Of a stretch of 64,000 nt of DNA, positions 1-10,394 are shown piece after piece. Within the stretch, counting starts at the first letter, position 1, and the number at the start of each line of letters is the position of its first letter. Where the stretch lies: contig CAZYIV010000009.1 in NCBI GenBank assembly GCA_964647615.1, positions 42 to 64,041 of the forward strand. Reading direction: 5' to 3'. Under the pieces are notes generated by a model, which worked only from the letters and a program-made list of their open reading frames with translations, was not told the origin of the DNA and did no database searches. Position numbers and translations under genes: made by a program. Source of the stretch: an uncultured Gemmatimonadaceae bacterium. Its GTDB lineage: Bacteria > Gemmatimonadota > Gemmatimonadetes > Gemmatimonadales > GWC2-71-9.

Positions 1-170
1 GGACGAGGGGCTCGGCTCGCAACGCCATGGGATTGCCACGGGCCCCCGGGCCTCCGGCCCGGGGTGCCCTCGCAATGACAGGGTGCACCTACAGTCTGTG
101 CCGTCCCTACTGTCTTACCGTCTTACCGTCTTACCGTCCTACCGTCCTCCCGTCCTACCGTCCGATCTGG
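1..170. repeat. REP-like composite repeat (right-arm type, truncated by the window edge) with a YTACCGTC octamer run
   Basis: 29-79 gggattgccacgggcccccgggcctccggcccggggtgccctcgcaatgac matches 6148-6199 almost base for base. 1-15 ggacgaggggctcgg matches the unit ends at 5960-5975 and 10318-10333. About 100-163 carries tandem (c/t)taccgtc units, as at 6209-6259. Confidence 0.8.
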
Positions 171-4826: not shown

Positions 4827-4949
4827 CGGTTCCTCCGAAGGCAGGGCGGGACAGGATGAGATGGGGGAGACCCAGAGGGACGCGGGGCGGCGGCGGGGAT
4901 TCTCAGTCAGGCGGGGGGAGGGGGGGGTGACAGGGGTGGGGGGAATGCT

Positions 4950-5310
4950 GTCATTGCGAGGGCACCCCGGCGCCTCGGCGTCCCGCGGCTAAAGCCTGCT
5001 CTCCCCGGCCTCGGCGTCCCACGGCTAAAGCCTGCTCTCCCTCGCGCCCGAGTCGCGGCTACGCCGCTCCTGAGGGGCGCTCGGTCGTCGGCATCTGTCG
5101 CTGAAGCGACAACTAATCGCCCTACTGGCGCCTCAGGGGCGCTCGGTCGTCCTCGGCTCGCGCTGACATCGCGTCCCGCGGCTAAAGCCGCGACATCCCT
5201 GGCGTTCCCTGGGCGCGCGTCCCGCGGCTAAAGCCGCGACATCCCTGGCGTTCCCTGGGCGCGCGTCCCGCGGCTAAAGCCGCGACTCGGCATCTATCGC
5301 TGAAGCGATG
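4950..5310. repeat. REP array, left arm
   Basis: Repeated hairpin units cgcggc-taaa-gccgcg and gtcgc-tgaa-gcgac. It begins with gtcattgcgagggcaccccgg, the reverse complement of 6179-6199. Confidence 0.85.
5171..5286. repeat. 46-bp direct tandem repeat, about 2.5 copies, inside the left REP arm
   Basis: gcgtcccgcggctaaagccgcgacatccctggcgttccctgggcgc occurs at 5171-5216 and 5217-5262, with a partial third copy at 5263-5286. The copies abut with no spacers. Confidence 0.9.
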
Positions 5311-5392
5311 TGGGTCCCGTGCGGGGTCGAAACGCGCCGATGGGAGTCATGGTGATGCGAGGTGCAAGGCCGAAGGAAGGTAGGATGGTCGG

Positions 5393-5863
5393 ATGCGCCA
5401 CCGACTCTTCGTGCACCTGGTCTGGACTACGCGGGAGCGCGCACCACTGATTGACCTGCCCCGTGCGGCCTTCCTGGCGCGGTTCCTGCCCGCCGTGGCC
5501 TGCCAGGAGCGCGCCCGGATGCTCGCGATGGGTGTCGTGCGTACCCACGTCCACCTGTTGCTCCGACTCGATCCCGCGACGGAGATCGGCCGGTTGGTGC
5601 AGCGACTCAAGGGCGGGAGCTCCCTCCTGATCTCCCGGGAGGGCCACGGTGGTTCCGGAGGGCCACTCCGCTGGGCACGAGGCTACAACCTCGAGTCTGT
5701 GAGCCCCCGTGCGGTTTCAGCCGTCCTGCAGTACGTGGAGTCTCAGGCTGCGCATCACCCTGCGGAGGCGATCCCGGGCTGGCCCCCAAAGGAGTCAGGT
5801 GCACGCGTCGCTTCAGCGATAGATGCCGAGTCGCGGCTTCAGCCGCGGGACTGGGCGCAGTGA
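5393..5863 (+). CDS. IS200/IS605-family Y1 (HUH) transposase-like protein, REP-associated (RAYT-like)
   Basis: HUH motif in VRTHVHLLLRL and the catalytic Tyr motif YxxxQ in LQYVESQ. Size is 156 aa. The last ~19 codons are encoded by the right-arm REP sequence. Confidence 0.85.
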   Translation: MRHRLFVHLVWTTRERAPLIDLPRAAFLARFLPAVACQERARMLAMGVVRTHVHLLLRLDPATEIGRLVQRLKGGSSLLISREGHGGSGGPLRWARGYNLESVSPRAVSAVLQYVESQAAHHPAEAIPGWPPKESGARVASAIDAESRLQPRDWAQ

Positions 5864-6199
5864 CCGATGGGAGAGGAGTTGTCGCTTCAGCGACAGAAGC
5901 CGACGACCGAGCGCCCCTCAGGAGCGGCGTAGCCGCGACTCGGGCGCGAGGGAGAGCAGGCTTCAGCCGCGGGACGAGGGGTCGGGGCGCGAGGGAGAGC
6001 AGGCTTCAGCCGCGGGACGCGGGGCCGGGGCGCGAGGGGGAGCAGGCTTTCGCCGCGAGACGAGGGGCCGGGGCGCGAGGGAGAGCAGGCTTTAGCCGCG
6101 GGACGATGGACTGGGGCCCGAGCGCCCGCCCCGGTGCGGAGCACCCTGGGATTGCCACGGGCACCCCGGGCCTCCGGCCCGGGGTGCCCTCGCAATGAC
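5807..6199. repeat. REP array, right arm (inverted relative to the left arm)
   Basis: Four tandem ~43-bp units cgcgagggagagcaggctt(c/t)agccgcgggacg... span about 5944-6116. The arm ends in a perfect 14-bp hairpin, GGGCACCCCGGGCC (6159-6172) tcc GGCCCGGGGTGCCC (6176-6189). Confidence 0.85.
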
Positions 6200-6208
6200 G
6201 ACCTTCGA

Positions 6209-6259
6209 CTACCGTCCTTACCGTCCCTACCGTCCTACCGTCTTACCGTCCTACCGTCC
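6209..6259. repeat. Octamer/nonamer microsatellite (Y)YTACCGTC, about 6 units
   Basis: ctaccgtccttaccgtccctaccgtcctaccgtcttaccgtcctaccgtcc. The same run follows the same hairpin at 100-163. It abuts the stop codon of the minus-strand gene ending at 6259. Confidence 0.85.
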
Positions 6260-6963
6260 TAAAGATGCTGAAACGGCGCCTCATGCGGCTCCGACCGCCG
6301 CGCCGCCGCCTGCGCCGCCCACCCGCGCCGCACCACGCCTGTGCTGCCGATGCCGACGGCAAGCGCCAGCGTCAGCACGATCCCGCCGAACAGGATCCCG
6401 AACGCCAGCCGGAGCACCACCCCGCCGATGTGCAGGTGTTCGAGCGCCATGGCGATCGCGAGCAGCTGCACCAGCCAGCGGACCCCCATGCTGAGGAGCG
6501 GCGCGCTGTCGAGCCCCAGGTTCACCGCGCCGATGAGCACGCCCCGGGAGAGGAACTGCGCCAGCACCCGCCCCGCGAGGAGCAGCAGGATCGCGACGAA
6601 GACGTTGGGCAGGTAGTCGATGAGCCGGCCGACGAGGGTGCCGAGCAGCTCGGGGTCGAGGGCGGTGAGCCCCACGAGTACGCCGCAGAGCAGGAAGGCC
6701 CACAGCACCACCCGGCCGAGGAGCCGGGCGGGGCTCCGGTCCGGCGACCACTCCGCCAGCGCGGAGAAGACTGTGCCGTTGAGCCGGCTGTCGAACTCCA
6801 GCCGGCGCAGCGCGCGGGTGAGGATCCAGCGCGCCGCACTCCCCAGCACCAGGGCGGCGAGGATCGCCACCAGCATCACCGCCGCCGCGGGGAGCAGCGC
6901 GGCGGCACTCTCCAGGACGCGGGCCCACGACTGCGCCAGCGCGTCAGAGACCGATTGCCACAT
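6259..6963 (-). CDS. Integral membrane protein, 'conserved TM helix' repeat type (mechanosensitive-channel-associated family)
   Basis: Several hydrophobic helices. The N-terminal pattern is [38 protein letters not shown]3 bias is strong. Confidence 0.55.
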
Positions 6964-6995: not shown

Positions 6996-8201
6996 TCACG
7001 GGTTGAACCGGTCCGGCCAGCGCCACCGTCCGATCAAGTATGGTTTCTCGCCCTCGAATCGCAAGCACAACTCCTCGATCCGCTGTTCCACTTCCGGCTC
7101 GGTCAGGCCGGCGACGCCCATCGCGAACCCCGCGAACCAGCCGAGATAGAGGGGGGTCAGGGCGGGGAGGAGGTGCTCGCGGCTGATGCTCCGGGCATGG
7201 TACGCCAGCAGCACGTCGTACAGGGTGCGGGCCCACAGGTCGTCGGGGATCCGGCAGGCGCTGTCGGGCCCGCGCGCCAGCCGGCGGTACTCCAGCACCG
7301 TCATCGGCGGCAGCACCCGGTTCCACACCGGCGCCAGATGCTGCTCGCCCCGCCGGAACGCCGCCAGTGCCTCGGTCACGTCCACCGTGGGGACGGCCCC
7401 GTCCCACGGCTCGGGCGTGCCCGTCCGCTCCACGGCATCGGAGCCGCGCTCCTTCTGCCACCGGGCCTGGGACCGCTCCGCCTCCTGGAACAGGGTCCCG
7501 AGCACCCGGGCCAGCACCGCGCTCAGCTCGCCGATCTCGTGGAAGGTCGTGAAGTGCCGGCTGCCGATCCAGGCCTCCGCCGGGCGGAAGCCGTTCACCA
7601 GCGCCCGCTGGGCCAGCCAGAGGTTGGTGACGTAGGCGCCGCCGGCTTCCCACTGCTTCTGGGCCAGGCAGTGCTGCAGGAACCTGCGGCTGCAGGCCAC
7701 GTCGCCCCCGCCGGGGAACCGCACCCGGTGCCCGTAGAGGGCGCGGGTGAAGGGGTACACGATGCCGGAGATGATCGCCCCCTCGAGCGGCGGCCGGCTG
7801 TACCACGGCGCCACGAAGTCCGCCCGGCCTGCCACCACCGGCTCGAGCAGCCGGACCAGCGCCTCCGGGTGGGTCCGGGCCAGCTCCGTCTCGACGATCG
7901 CCAGCGCGGGGGCGGCCAGCGCCACCGCCTCCGCCGCCACCGACCGCAGGAACTCCGCCCGCGCGGCGGGTGGCGGGACGGCGCGCGCCGGGTCCGCCGG
8001 GATCGGCACATCCACCAGGCGCCCGCCAGCTGCAGGTTCGGCCGTCGCCGAGCCGGCGTGGAGCAGCAGCAGCCGCCGGCCGGGGAAGGCGGGCAGCACC
8101 GCCGCGGCGAGGGCCGCGCGCACCGCGTCGAGGGAGTCGGCATCGCCGGGGCCGGCGATCGCCACCGCCAGGTCGGCGGCGGGCGGAGTCGGGTCGGTCA
8201 C
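6996..8201 (-). CDS. Glycosyltransferase-like protein (GT-A fold suspected), divergent from treS
   Basis: 401-aa ORF with a GTG start at 8201. The family call is from weak recollection of glucosylglycerate-synthase-like proteins and no catalytic motif was verified. The antisense ORFs are compositional junk. Confidence 0.4.
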
Positions 8202-8420
8202 CGGACGGCCCGCGGGTCAGGGGCGCGGGAGGGGAGGGAACGCCGGGTCGGAGTCGTCATCGCTCTCGATACAATAGCCCCGGCTGCCCCGCGTGCCAAC
8301 GCCCGCGGCACGGCCCACTGGACGTGGGGCCCGCATGGGGCCAATCTCCCCCGGGGAGCCGCGGCACGCCGCCGGGGCGCCGTTCGTGGATGCCCGATCG
8401 AATGCCGGGAGGAGCCTCGC

Positions 8421-10121
8421 GTGGGGATTGCCCCAGACCTCGACGATCCGCTCTGGTTCAAGGATGCCGTCATCTACGAGCTGCACGTCCGCGCCTTCCA
8501 GGACGGCAACCACGACGGCATCGGTGACTTCCCCGGCCTGCTCGAGCGGCTCGACTACCTGCAGGAACTGGGCGTCACCTGCCTCTGGCTGCTGCCCTTC
8601 TTCCCCTCGCCGCTGCGCGATGACGGCTACGACATCGCCGACTACACCGCGGTCCACCCGCAGTACGGCAACCTGGACGACTTCCGCCGCTTCCTCGATG
8701 CCGCGCACGAGCGCGGCATGCGGGTGATGATCGAGCTGGTCATCAACCACACCTCCGACCAGCACCCCTGGTTCCAGGCGGCGCGCCGGGCGCCCCCCGG
8801 CTCGCCCGAGCGCGACTTCTACGTCTGGAGCGACACCGACAGTCGCTACCCCGGGGTGCGGATCATCTTCACCGACACCGAGCAGTCCAACTGGACCTGG
8901 GACCCGGTGGCGGGGGCGTACTACTGGCACCGGTTCTTCTCCCACCAGCCCGACCTCAACTTCGACAACCCGAAGGTGCTGGCCGAGGTGATCCGGGTGA
9001 TGGGCTTCTGGCTGGACATGGGGGTGGACGCCCTGCGGCTGGACGCGATCCCCTACCTGTGCGAGCGGGAGGGCACCAGCTGCGAGAACCTCCCCGAAAC
9101 ACATGCGGTGATCCGGAAGATCCGCGCCGCGCTCGATGCGGTGTATCCCGGCCGCATGATCCTGGCGGAGGCCAATCAGTGGCCGGAGGATGTCTGCGCC
9201 TACTTCGGGCAGGGGGACGAGTGCCACATGGCGTTCCACTTCCCGCTGATGCCGCGGCTGTTCATGGCGCTCCGGCTGGAGGACCGGCACCCGGTGGTGG
9301 AGATCATGCAGCGCACCCCCGCCATTCCCGACGGCTGCCAGTGGGCGCTCTTCCTGCGGAACCATGACGAGCTCACGCTCGAGATGGTGACCGACGAGGA
9401 GCGGGACTATATGTACCAGGCCTACAGCGCCGACCCGCAGATGCGGATCAACGTCGGCATCCGGCGCCGGCTTGCCCCGCTGCTGGAGAACGGCCGCCGC
9501 CGGATCGAGCTGCTCAACAGCATCCTGCTCTCGTTCCCGGGGACGCCCATCCTCTACTACGGCGACGAGATCGGGATGGGCGACAACATCTACCTCGGCG
9601 ACCGCAACGGGGTCCGCACCCCGATGCAATGGAACGCCGACCGCAACGCCGGCTTCTCCCGCGCCGACCCCGCCCGGCTGTTCAGCCCGCTGGTGATGGA
9701 CCCGGTGTACGGCTACCCGGCGGTCAACGTGGAGAACCAGGTGGGCGAGCCCTCGAGCCTGCTCAACTGGACCCGGCACATGATCGCGCTCAGGCAGCTG
9801 TTCCGGGTGTTCGGGCGGGGCGGGATCGAGTTCCTGGCGCCGGCCAACCGCAAGGTGCTGGCGTACCTCCGGCGCTACGAGGACGAGGTGGTGCTCTGCG
9901 TGGCGAATCTCTCGCGCTTTGCGCAGCCGTGCGAGCTGGACCTCGCGGCGCTGAGCGGGATGATTCCCATCGAGATGCTGGGGTACGTGGAGTTCCCGCG
10001 GATCAACCGCGTGCCCTATCGGCTGACGCTCGGGCCGTACGGCTTCTTCTGGTTCGAGCTGCACGCGGATCGGCCGCCGGCGGATGCGGGGCGGGGGGAG
10101 GGGGCGGGGGGAGGGGCGTAG
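8421..10121 (+). CDS. treS: Trehalose synthase / maltose alpha-D-glucosyltransferase (GH13), without a fused maltokinase domain
   Basis: [80 protein letters not shown] at 8421 follows gggaggag. The track ORF start at 7173 was rejected. Confidence 0.92.
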
Positions 10122-10136: not shown

Positions 10137-10394
10137 CCCGCGGCTAAAGCCGCGGCTCGGCTACTGTCGCTGAAGCGACGCAAGCGTTTGGGTTCCCCGC
10201 AAGGCGACGCGTACGAGAGCTTTACATCTCTTTGGCGATAGATGCCGACGACCGAGCGGCCTTCAGGAGCCGCGAAGCGGCGACTCGGCCGCGAGGGAGA
10301 GCATGCTTCAGCCGCGGGACGAGTGGCTCGGGCGCGGAGCGCCGAGGGATTGCCACGGGCCCCCGGGCCGCCGCCCCTGCGTGCCCTCGCAATG
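10137..10394. repeat. Transposase-less composite REP element (short left-arm unit plus right-arm units)
   Basis: 10137-10179 cccgcggctaaagccgcggctcggctactgtcgctgaagcgac is left-arm type. 10235-10394 gcgatagatgccgacgaccgagcgg...gagggagagcatgcttcagccgcgggacgag...gggattgccacgggc...gtgccctcgcaatg is right-arm type. Confidence 0.8.

Follow-up and report, generated by a model that had tools for sequence, protein, structure and literature searches.

Of all cases in which a transposase was domesticated along with a lasting set of miniature repeats, the best studied is that of repetitive extragenic palindromic (REP) sequences and their REP-associated tyrosine transposase (RAYT). To our knowledge, nearly all the data on them come from Proteobacteria and from class 2 enzymes. 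Here, we describe a Y1 transposase gene of the HUH type that is embedded in arrays of small hairpins in an uncultured Gemmatimonadaceae bacterium. The window, i.e., the whole stretch of DNA that was analysed, comprises 64,000 nucleotides (nt) of contig CAZYIV010000009.1 (hereafter C9) of assembly GCA_964647615.1. It is proposed, with a probability of roughly 0.7, that the locus is a REPtron-like unit, in which a fixed, single-copy, IS200-like Y1 gene is accompanied by cognate repeats that the enzyme most likely recognises and spreads. What is new in this system is the pairing of an IS200-like enzyme, close to the so-called subclass 1.2, with a two-hairpin repeat built around the hexamer CTCGGC/GCCGAG.

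The described systems of this kind are the REPtrons (RAYT or TnpA_REP, class 2; Nunvar 2010, Ton-Hoang 2012, and the REPIN-RAYT systems of Bertels and Rainey). In these, a single-copy chromosomal Y1 HUH gene is flanked by inverted hairpins, and the repeats are dispersed extragenically, often in mosaic clusters that resemble bacterial interspersed mosaic elements (BIMEs). The gene and the repeats co-evolve, and a repeat may overlap the 3′ end of the open reading frame (ORF). All of this is shared by the locus described here. RAYT proteins, or class 2, are defined by the motif Y-x3-NP (NP(L/V)(R/K)xG), and REPtrons by a GT[AG]G foot (Nunvar 2010, PMC2817692; Quentin 2018, PMC6006769). Genes of subclass 1.2 carry DH[IV]H, WQ and YIKNQKEHH; they are low-copy genes that are not insertion sequences (ISs), are known mostly from Cyanobacteria and Bacteroidetes, and were reported to be without REPs (Quentin 2018, PMC6006769). 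Class 3 consists of REPtron-like genes of Planctomycetes, Acidobacteria and Proteobacteria, which are intermediate between IS200 and RAYT (PMC6006769). They are flanked by hairpins of an atypical kind that bear a CnGA foot on the 5′ side and also occur dispersed in the genome (PMC6006769). The class 3 motifs are YV[VI][AENY]EQ (Y-x4-Q) and NHVH, with a profile of 155 amino acids (aa) and a median protein length of 178 aa (PMC6006769, Table 1). A search of the accessible literature found no paper that links Gemmatimonadota with REPs, REPtrons or IS200-like domesticated genes.

The window belongs to a draft assembly of 4.15 Mb (72% G+C, 267 contigs, 96% complete), and the source names on homologues place the host, a soil bacterium, in Gemmatimonadales. 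A first-pass annotation, made from the letters alone, had proposed a non-proteobacterial host and a 156-aa ORF with HVH and YVESQ motifs. It had also described arms that are reverse complements of each other block by block, an asymmetric expansion of these arms, and a transposase C-terminus that is itself REP sequence. Each of these was borne out, with the arms lying at, or within a few bases of, the predicted positions. The arms consist of small hairpins and bracket the gene at 4943-5310 and 5807-6206. Their basic repeat is a doublet of ~44 nt, made up of hairpin 1 (T-R-A-A loop), the invariant CTCGGC, a linker of 3-10 nt and hairpin 2. The features of the locus, from left to right, are as follows.

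4943..4970, + strand: block GAATGCTGTCATTGCGAGGGCACCCCGG at the outer left end, reverse-complementary to 6179-6206; corresponds to half of the 'Z' hairpin unit

4972..5043, + strand: two 36-nt units, each the 5′ half of hairpin 1 (CGTCCCGCGGCTAAAGCC) followed by TGCTCTCCC; direct repeat family D2, inverted repeats I3-I8

5037..5112, + strand: 'X' unit, a variant doublet with a bipartite hairpin (GCGCCC...GGGCGC around GCGGC-TAC-GCCGC), CTCGGT and hairpin 2 (GTCGC-TGAA-GCGAC)

5128..5166, + strand: partial second copy of the X unit; direct repeat D5, 79%

5170..5261, + strand: two identical 46-nt units (hairpin 1 and spacer); direct repeat D4, 100% identity, a tandem expansion confined to the left arm

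5262..5310, + strand: gene-proximal 5′ REP doublet ('Y' unit), with hairpin 1 at 5269-5284 (CGCGGC-TAAA-GCCGCG), CTCGGC at 5286-5291 and hairpin 2 at 5296-5309 (ATCGC-TGAA-GCGAT)

5311..5392, + strand: leader from the 5′ doublet to the ATG, unique, with a purine-rich stretch GAAGGAAGGTAGG resembling a ribosome-binding site 10-22 nt before the start codon

5393..5863, + strand: Y1 HUH transposase gene, 156 aa, TGA stop at 5861-5863

5807..5851, - strand: inverted 3′ REP doublet, with hairpin 2′ at 5807-5820, GCCGAG at 5825-5830 and hairpin 1′ at 5832-5847; overlaps codons 139-153; inverted repeat I2

5881..5955, - strand: inverted X unit; inverted repeat I1, also found by BLAST

5942..6113, - strand: four tandem 43-nt units, each half of hairpin 1 followed by GCTCTCCCTCGCGCCC; direct repeat D1, 88-100% identity, spacing 43 nt, right arm only

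6151..6196, no strand assigned: 'Z' unit, an interrupted 19-bp hairpin (ATTGC..GGGCACCCCGGGCC-TCC-GGCCCGGGGTGCCC..GCAAT), whose 3′ half is the right terminal block

6209..6260, + strand: octamer microsatellite (TACCGTCC)n; direct repeat D6, adjoining the right arm

The two gene-proximal doublets form an inverted repeat of 44 nt (5265-5308 against 5808-5851) that is 98% complementary, and the sole mismatch lies in a loop (TAAA against TGAA). Further out, the inverted repeat I1 joins 5004-5122 with 5869-5987 (119 nt, 91%), and I13 joins 4943-4970 with 6179-6206 (28 nt, 89% complementary). The X unit at 5037-5112 is 98.7% identical by BLAST to the reverse complement at 5881-5955. The expansions differ between the arms: the left arm alone has the 46-nt unit, in 2.5 copies (5170-5307), and the right arm has four copies of the 43-nt unit, whose left counterparts are the two 36-nt versions. 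The gene's last 18 codons, together with the stop (5807-5863), coincide with the 3′ hairpin pair or follow closely on it. No further copies of the leader were found in the genome, and neither a sigma-70-like promoter nor an intrinsic terminator was detected in it. It could be argued that this near-palindromic structure of 1.3 kb is an artefact of assembling a metagenome-assembled genome (MAG), as the draft is in 267 contigs and eight REP clusters sit at contig edges, so that the repeats do disturb assembly. This is highly improbable, however. The arms are imperfect and asymmetrically expanded and hence not a fold-back duplicate, the gene is intact, and ~70 independent assemblies, among them long-read-like contigs of several megabases, have this architecture too.

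The Y1 protein matches the Pfam family Y1_Tnp (PF01797) with an E-value of 2.2e-18 (67 bits). Its motifs are THVH at residues 51-54 (HuH at 52-54), W94-A, the catalytic Y114 and YVESQ at 114-118, the last within the longer stretch YVESQAAHHP...IPGW. Across 20 family members, H52, H54, Y114 and the W motif are invariant, and the family consensus reads THVH, W-A and YVxxQxx[RH]HPxxAIxGW. The NCBIfam equivalog for IS200/IS605 (NF033573) scores 61.2 bits and passes its cut-off of 55; the RAYT equivalog (NF047646, REP_Tyr_transpos) scores 22.3 bits, below its cut-off of 80. All 20 members match the IS200 model, the best E-values being 1.3e-20 for IS200 and 1.7e-8 for RAYT. Among structures in the Protein Data Bank, the sequence matches are to IS608, ISDra2, DR_0177 and Sulfolobus TnpA, with no RayT among them. 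The AlphaFold2 model has a confidence (pLDDT) of 87, falling to 52-60 in the C-terminal tail, and its best Foldseek matches are the TnpA proteins of ISDra2 and IS608 (E ~6e-9). The E. coli RayT structure 4er8 appears at rank 30, with an E-value of 2e-5 and 13% identity. Direct comparison with E. coli RayT (from NC_000913; control motif YIYINPVKHG) by BLASTP and hhalign gave no significant similarity. By hidden Markov model (HMM), motif and fold, the Y1 protein is thus IS200-like and lies outside the RAYT clade. The gene is under purifying selection, the orthologues of two congeneric genomes (G032 and G033) giving a dN/dS of 0.24 at a dS of 0.84.

With the TnpA of IS200/IS605 (subclass 1.1; IS608, ISDra2, IS200), the protein has in common the best HMM, sequence and structure matches, the HuH and Y-x3-Q motifs and a length of ~150 aa. 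One alternative is that the locus is an ordinary autonomous IS of the IS200 type, present once in the genome, and that the dispersed hairpins are remnants resembling miniature inverted-repeat transposable elements, or solo ends. The passed IS200 equivalog (61 bits against 55), the Y-x3-Q motif and a fold closest to IS608 and ISDra2 TnpA all favour it, as does the patchy distribution of the gene in its genus. We nevertheless consider it unlikely, as the copy number and distribution of the gene are hard to reconcile with IS behaviour. In the 4.15-Mb assembly, protein and Pfam HMM searches found a single Y1_Tnp gene, and a TnpB zinc-ribbon domain was not found; the first-pass annotation had held that many identical gene copies with a TnpB-like partner would point to an ordinary IS. 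An apparent second copy on contig C226 was rejected, as the match covers residues 122-153 only, which is the REP-encoded tail. The gene lies mid-contig in 64 kb of otherwise unique sequence, and a multi-copy element of 1.3 kb would normally have broken such a contig. The genome being a draft MAG, copy numbers are lower bounds.

Ten of 36 congeneric species have the family gene, one copy each apart from G032 with two; a second match in G033 and the matches in G036 and G047 belong to other Y1 subclasses. One copy per genome is the rule even in assemblies of 3 to 20 contigs, and in G031 (3 contigs, 97% complete), one gene copy is accompanied by 25 hairpin units. Where a genome has several loci, as with the three on one CAWFGG01 contig (L036/L045/L050), each is 56-60% identical to the Y1 protein of the window, whereas IS200 copies of subclass 1.1 average 99% identity (Quentin 2018, PMC6006769, Table 1). 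No homologue was found by protein search in 72,556 plasmids, and a search of phage DNA gave no relevant match. When one genome per species was scanned, 80 loci were obtained, of which 79 belong to Gemmatimonadota MAGs. By word-indexed protein search, 281 relatives were retrieved; those with a name are all Gemmatimonadota or Gemmatimonadales, and some relatives bear the JGI label 'RayT', which we take to be the generic name of COG1943. A profile search of 1.84 billion representatives gave 68 clusters at E <= 1e-30. Close species have syntenic copies with identical flanking genes (L007/L015 and L006/L008), which again speaks against an ordinary IS.

The repeats themselves are dispersed in the genome. 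According to the first-pass annotation, finding the hairpin units nowhere else would have refuted the REP interpretation; BLAST with the arm units found 38 clusters, of which 36 lie outside the locus and eight at contig edges. Most of them occupy gaps between ORFs of high third-position G+C, many between convergent genes. The Y doublet, GTCCCGCGGC-TRAA-GCCGCG-A-CTCGGC-ATCT-GTCGC-TGAA-GCGAC, is present in ~17 copies with unrelated flanks on both sides, and the X unit (bipartite hairpin and CTCGGT) in ~25 copies on ~20 contigs. When counted irrespective of stem sequence, there are 22 units of hairpin 1 with CTCGGC on 12 contigs; 20 of these are followed by hairpin 2, and two are those at the gene. 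The hairpin-1 16-mer CGCGGCTRAAGCCGCG occurs 23 times in this genome (G000). With its reversed control absent there and found 0-1 times in any genome, this repetition exceeds chance by far. Directly after the 16-mer, RCTCGGC follows in 20 of 23 cases here and in 25 of 25 in G031. The dispersed units are complete doublets with unrelated flanks and not IS ends, which tells against their being remnants of an IS. Two further clusters lie in the window.

1..81, no strand assigned: REP cluster at the contig start, an inverted Y doublet running off the contig end together with a Z hairpin; matches C9:1-122 and overlaps the end of C226

10134..10394, no strand assigned: gene-less composite cluster with a Y doublet (+), ~55 nt, an inverted X unit, half of hairpin 1 and a Z-like hairpin; BLAST matches C9:10177-10435

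The composite cluster stands downstream of a long ORF (7173-10121, + strand), whose product, by eye, looks like an enzyme of the alpha-amylase or trehalose-synthase type. Its modules come in the order seen in the arms, and it is a candidate for a mobile unit of the REPIN or BIME kind.

The relation between gene and repeats is conserved across loci. Before the ATG, the same design recurs: stem 1, T(R)AA, stem 1′, one base, CTCGGC, 3-10 nt, and then stem 2, loop and stem 2′. Of 81 loci, 72 have CTCGGC in the 250 nt before the gene, whereas a control region 1.05-1.3 kb upstream has it in 14 of 67. The copy nearest to the ATG lies mostly 50-145 nt away, with a mode of 79-80 nt. On the other side, 70 of 79 loci have the inverted GCCGAG at the end of the ORF or beyond it; in 22 of these 70, it overlaps with the end of the coding sequence, and in 27 it comes no more than 60 nt after the stop. 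In several members, the stop codon is supplied by the hairpin 1′ loop TTTA (...AEPRL*). Orientation was scored on the nearest motif on each side, and the motifs are inverted in 52 of 68 loci (76%), 35 of them as in the window and 17 in the reverse arrangement. The other 16 have direct motifs, as in an IS; the 76% with inverted flanks argue against one. A different orientation test, which asked for an inverted score above the direct score, failed, as many loci hold arrays in both orientations.

The doublet was further analysed for covariation in a MAFFT alignment of 60 distinct upstream doublets. CTCGGC and the first T of the loop are invariant. Compensatory double changes were observed at 13 of 13 base pairs of both helices, and the share of paired cells is 87%; sliding the partner by 1-3 columns lowers it to 28-47%. 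Double-change cells number 93 as compared to 22.8 in shuffles, and none of 500 shuffles reaches any of the measures. Hairpin 1 was recovered independently by RNAalifold. What is conserved is thus the structure, plus the loop and the hexamer. The structural case rests on this covariation because the doublet hairpins, taken singly, are no more stable than GC-matched shuffles (z ~-1.5 to -1.8).

Covariation of stems is, however, expected of any selected structure. It may be asked whether the doublets are host-selected structural or RNA elements, such as 3′-end stabilisers, terminator-like elements or protein-binding sites, with the Y1 protein domesticated as an enzyme that processes single-stranded DNA in another role; the two would then not be related as transposase and cargo. 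Many copies do lie at 3′ ends between convergent genes, some genomes have kept repeats without the gene, and varied cellular roles have been suggested for non-IS Y1 proteins (Quentin 2018, PMC6006769). Even so, such an origin appears improbable. The fixed position of doublet and gene in ~70 loci and the in-frame overlap with the stop are hard to explain without direct recognition. The same holds for the sharing of stem variants, within a genome, between the gene flanks and the dispersed copies. Moreover, no U-tract terminators were found, an Rfam search gave no relevant family, and single hairpins do not exceed GC-matched shuffles in stability.

Evidence for an association of gene and repeats also comes from the comparison of genomes. 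Of the congeneric genomes, 10 have the gene, and 7 of these contain the hairpin-1 16-mer five or more times; among the 26 without the gene, 4 do. As the genomes are related, these counts are descriptive only. Three other genomes (G063, G064 and G065) each have the same stem variant next to the gene as among their dispersed copies. Stems of the type CTCGGC/GCCGAG occur 10 times in G064 and not at all in G063 and G065; CGTGGC/GCCACG stems are present five times in G063, and CGTCGC and CGCGAC types in G065.

How the system could work may be drawn by analogy with the TnpA of IS608 and ISDra2 and with TnpA_REP of E. coli; binding, cleavage, the active strand and the mobilisation of repeats by the Y1 enzyme are all inferred in this way. 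The chemistry expected is that of IS200/IS605 TnpA, which recognises small subterminal hairpins of single-stranded DNA. On the opposite strand of the doublet, 5′-GCCGAG stands directly before hairpin 1, where classical REPs have their GT[AG]G foot and IS608 ends their guide tetranucleotide. The enzyme would bind the folded hairpin and its 5′ foot while the DNA is transiently single-stranded. In the Y1 systems that have been characterised to date, the conserved foot precedes the hairpin on its 5′ side, and the strand reading GCCGAG-hairpin 1′ is therefore likely to be the active one. Cleavage would then take place nearby via Tyr114, with the HVH motif holding the metal. Rejoining of strands may allow doublets and composites to be excised, inserted and tandemly expanded. 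The gene, on the other hand, would stay in place, as the two gene-proximal doublets are on opposite strands, and it would not be excisable from one strand. Such movement and tandem amplification of doublets would explain the asymmetric 46-nt and 43-nt expansions as well as the mosaic, BIME-like clusters.

The first-pass annotation had called the locus a textbook RAYT with cognate REP/BIME clusters. Its genomic behaviour agrees with this, being single-copy, without a TnpB, with inverted flanks and dispersed units; the protein does not, with 22 bits against a cut-off of 80 for NF047646. The 'textbook' label has to be dropped, as there is no Y-x3-NP or NP(L/V)(R/K)xG, no GT[AG]G foot, and copies are counted in tens and not hundreds. 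In place of the RAYT motif Y-x3-NP, the Y1 protein has Y-x3-Q-x2-HH, and in place of the GT[AG]G foot, the repeat has a two-hairpin unit with the invariant CTCGGC/GCCGAG. There are ~22 doublets and ~25 X units here, as against hundreds of REPs there, and the present system is restricted to Gemmatimonadota. It differs from IS200/IS605 as well. The gene is single-copy here (and likewise in 8 of 10 relatives with the gene), no TnpB was found, and no homologue of the gene was met on the plasmids searched. The end hairpins of an IS are on the same strand; here the flanks are mostly on opposite strands, and the repeats exist independently of the gene.

Subclass 1.2 comes closer. Both have the IS200-related core, Y---Q--HH (Y---Q--[RH]H in the family) and a short conserved tail after the core, along with low copy number, divergent paralogues and no IS behaviour. 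The family differs from it in THVH, W-A and YVxxQxx[RH]HPxxAIxGW, and in having REPs. Canonical 1.2 genes (DHVH, WQ, YIDNQEAHH...YVWD) from the same genus, at loci L013 (G036:C12) and L016 (G033:C17), are ~30% identical to the family. An unrooted, small maximum-likelihood tree places the 1.2 genes, together with subclass 1.1, beyond a branch of length 1.8 (support 99/98), and only this split of the family against subclasses 1.1 and 1.2 was used. Rooting the tree on E. coli RayT was discarded, as its branch of 8 substitutions per site attaches inside the family, which is a long-branch artefact. In a profile search, 20 sequences beyond the core family were inspected, and the clearest out-group carries the subclass 1.2 motifs. 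As judged from these sequence comparisons, the Y1 family appears nearest to, yet distinct from, subclass 1.2. Downstream of the subclass 1.2 gene of G036, another hairpin repeat (GGGTCGGGCCTTCGGCCC...) stands in tandem copies, and it may be that this subclass is not REP-free either.

With class 3, the family shares the W[TA] motif, and GCCGAG contains CCGA one base from the stem, a likeness to the CnGA foot that was compared by description only. The published motifs of class 3 set it apart, since the spacing from Y to Q is 3 here and 4 there, and THVH stands in place of NHVH. The TIRtrons, with their TIRYT transposases (Di Nocera 2013, PMC3733652), also resemble the locus in having Y1 genes, inverted and sometimes double-palindromic flanks, moderately abundant dispersed families and a 3′ overlap. 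Membership in this group was rejected, as TIRYT has been equated with class 2.1 (Y-x3-NP; Quentin 2018, PMC6006769), so that it is a different protein family. A link with the CGTC-tagged REPs (Di Nocera 2013, PMC3733652) was likewise set aside: CGTC precedes hairpin 1 here, but orthologues have GCTC, CCC, GTC and others, and the agreement was taken to be a coincidence.

Several observations weigh against the REPtron-like interpretation. Every sequence criterion puts the Y1 protein as IS200-like. In the genus, 10 of 36 species have the gene, a patchy distribution that gain and loss of a mobile element would fit as well. In 16 of 68 loci, the closest motifs on the two sides of the gene are in direct orientation. 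Copy number derives from assemblies. The repeat units are few, ~20-45 as compared to more than 100 for classical REPs. Four genomes (G020, G030, G035 and G036) hold 7-16 hairpins and no family gene at E <= 1e-5; the gene could have been lost with the repeats kept, or it could be missing from the assembly. In a comparison aimed at the outer ends of the element, 11 relatives were found to keep the gene pair gt401-memb234 in synteny, but each has different DNA beyond that pair; the locus thus sits at a synteny break, and there is no empty site.

On a more far-reaching reading, the REPtron lifestyle, in which one fixed Y1 gene copy sustains many miniature hairpin repeats, may have arisen in a class 1 (IS200-type) lineage that Quentin et al. 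reported to be without REPs, either by independent domestication in Gemmatimonadota or as a missing link, with a new two-hairpin GCCGAG recognition. We put this forward tentatively, at somewhat less than even odds. In the missing-link version, the REP association would be older than the split of IS200 and RAYT. A two-hairpin substrate with an invariant GCCGAG foot would, if confirmed, be a new recognition logic for Y1 enzymes. A phylum-specific, IS200-like system bears on whether domestication occurred once or repeatedly, and this question becomes approachable with a two-hairpin substrate that is conserved, keeps its hexamer unchanged and shows covarying stems in ~60 species. The substrate is also compact and defined, and so is suited to the biochemistry of how Y1 enzymes read a hairpin with its foot. 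On a practical note, such repeats break MAG assemblies, as seen for 8 of the 38 clusters, which lie at contig ends.

Some further observations concern the sequences around the doublets. The Z unit (DNA fold -23.7 kcal/mol, z -4.7) has ~5 copies genome-wide, always adjoining REP doublets: 28-79, 6151-6196 and 10346-10394 in the window, C117:1200-1252 and C226:2271-2322. At both outer ends of the 1.3-kb array, the inverted terminus consists of the 3′ half of this unit, and the unit of the outer left block was found again at C9:100-122, on C117 and on C226. The end of the 2.4-kb contig C226 (2204-2322) and C9:2-120 carry the same REP cluster, and the two contigs are probably adjacent in the genome. 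The octamer (CC[TG]ACCG[TC])n, e.g., TACCGTCC x6, makes up ~80 short arrays across the genome, among them those at 6209-6260 and 113-160 of the window. Such an array lies within 100 nt of 11 of the 38 REP clusters, and X-type units are typically flanked by octamer arrays on both sides, in either orientation. The array at 6209-6260 is probably outside the element proper and part of a separate, more abundant repeat family. Analogous short tandem repeats adjoin the Y1 loci of related genomes (L005, L006, L011 and L101).

Over-long proteins were discarded as fusions or annotation errors in an earlier survey (Quentin 2018, PMC6006769). Among public proteins of 270-300 aa (P0151, P0152, P0156, P0157, P0166, P0170 and ~20 more), two tandem Y1 HUH domains were observed, each of which retains HuH and Y---Q--HH. 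These tandem-domain proteins look like single-chain forms of the obligate TnpA dimer.

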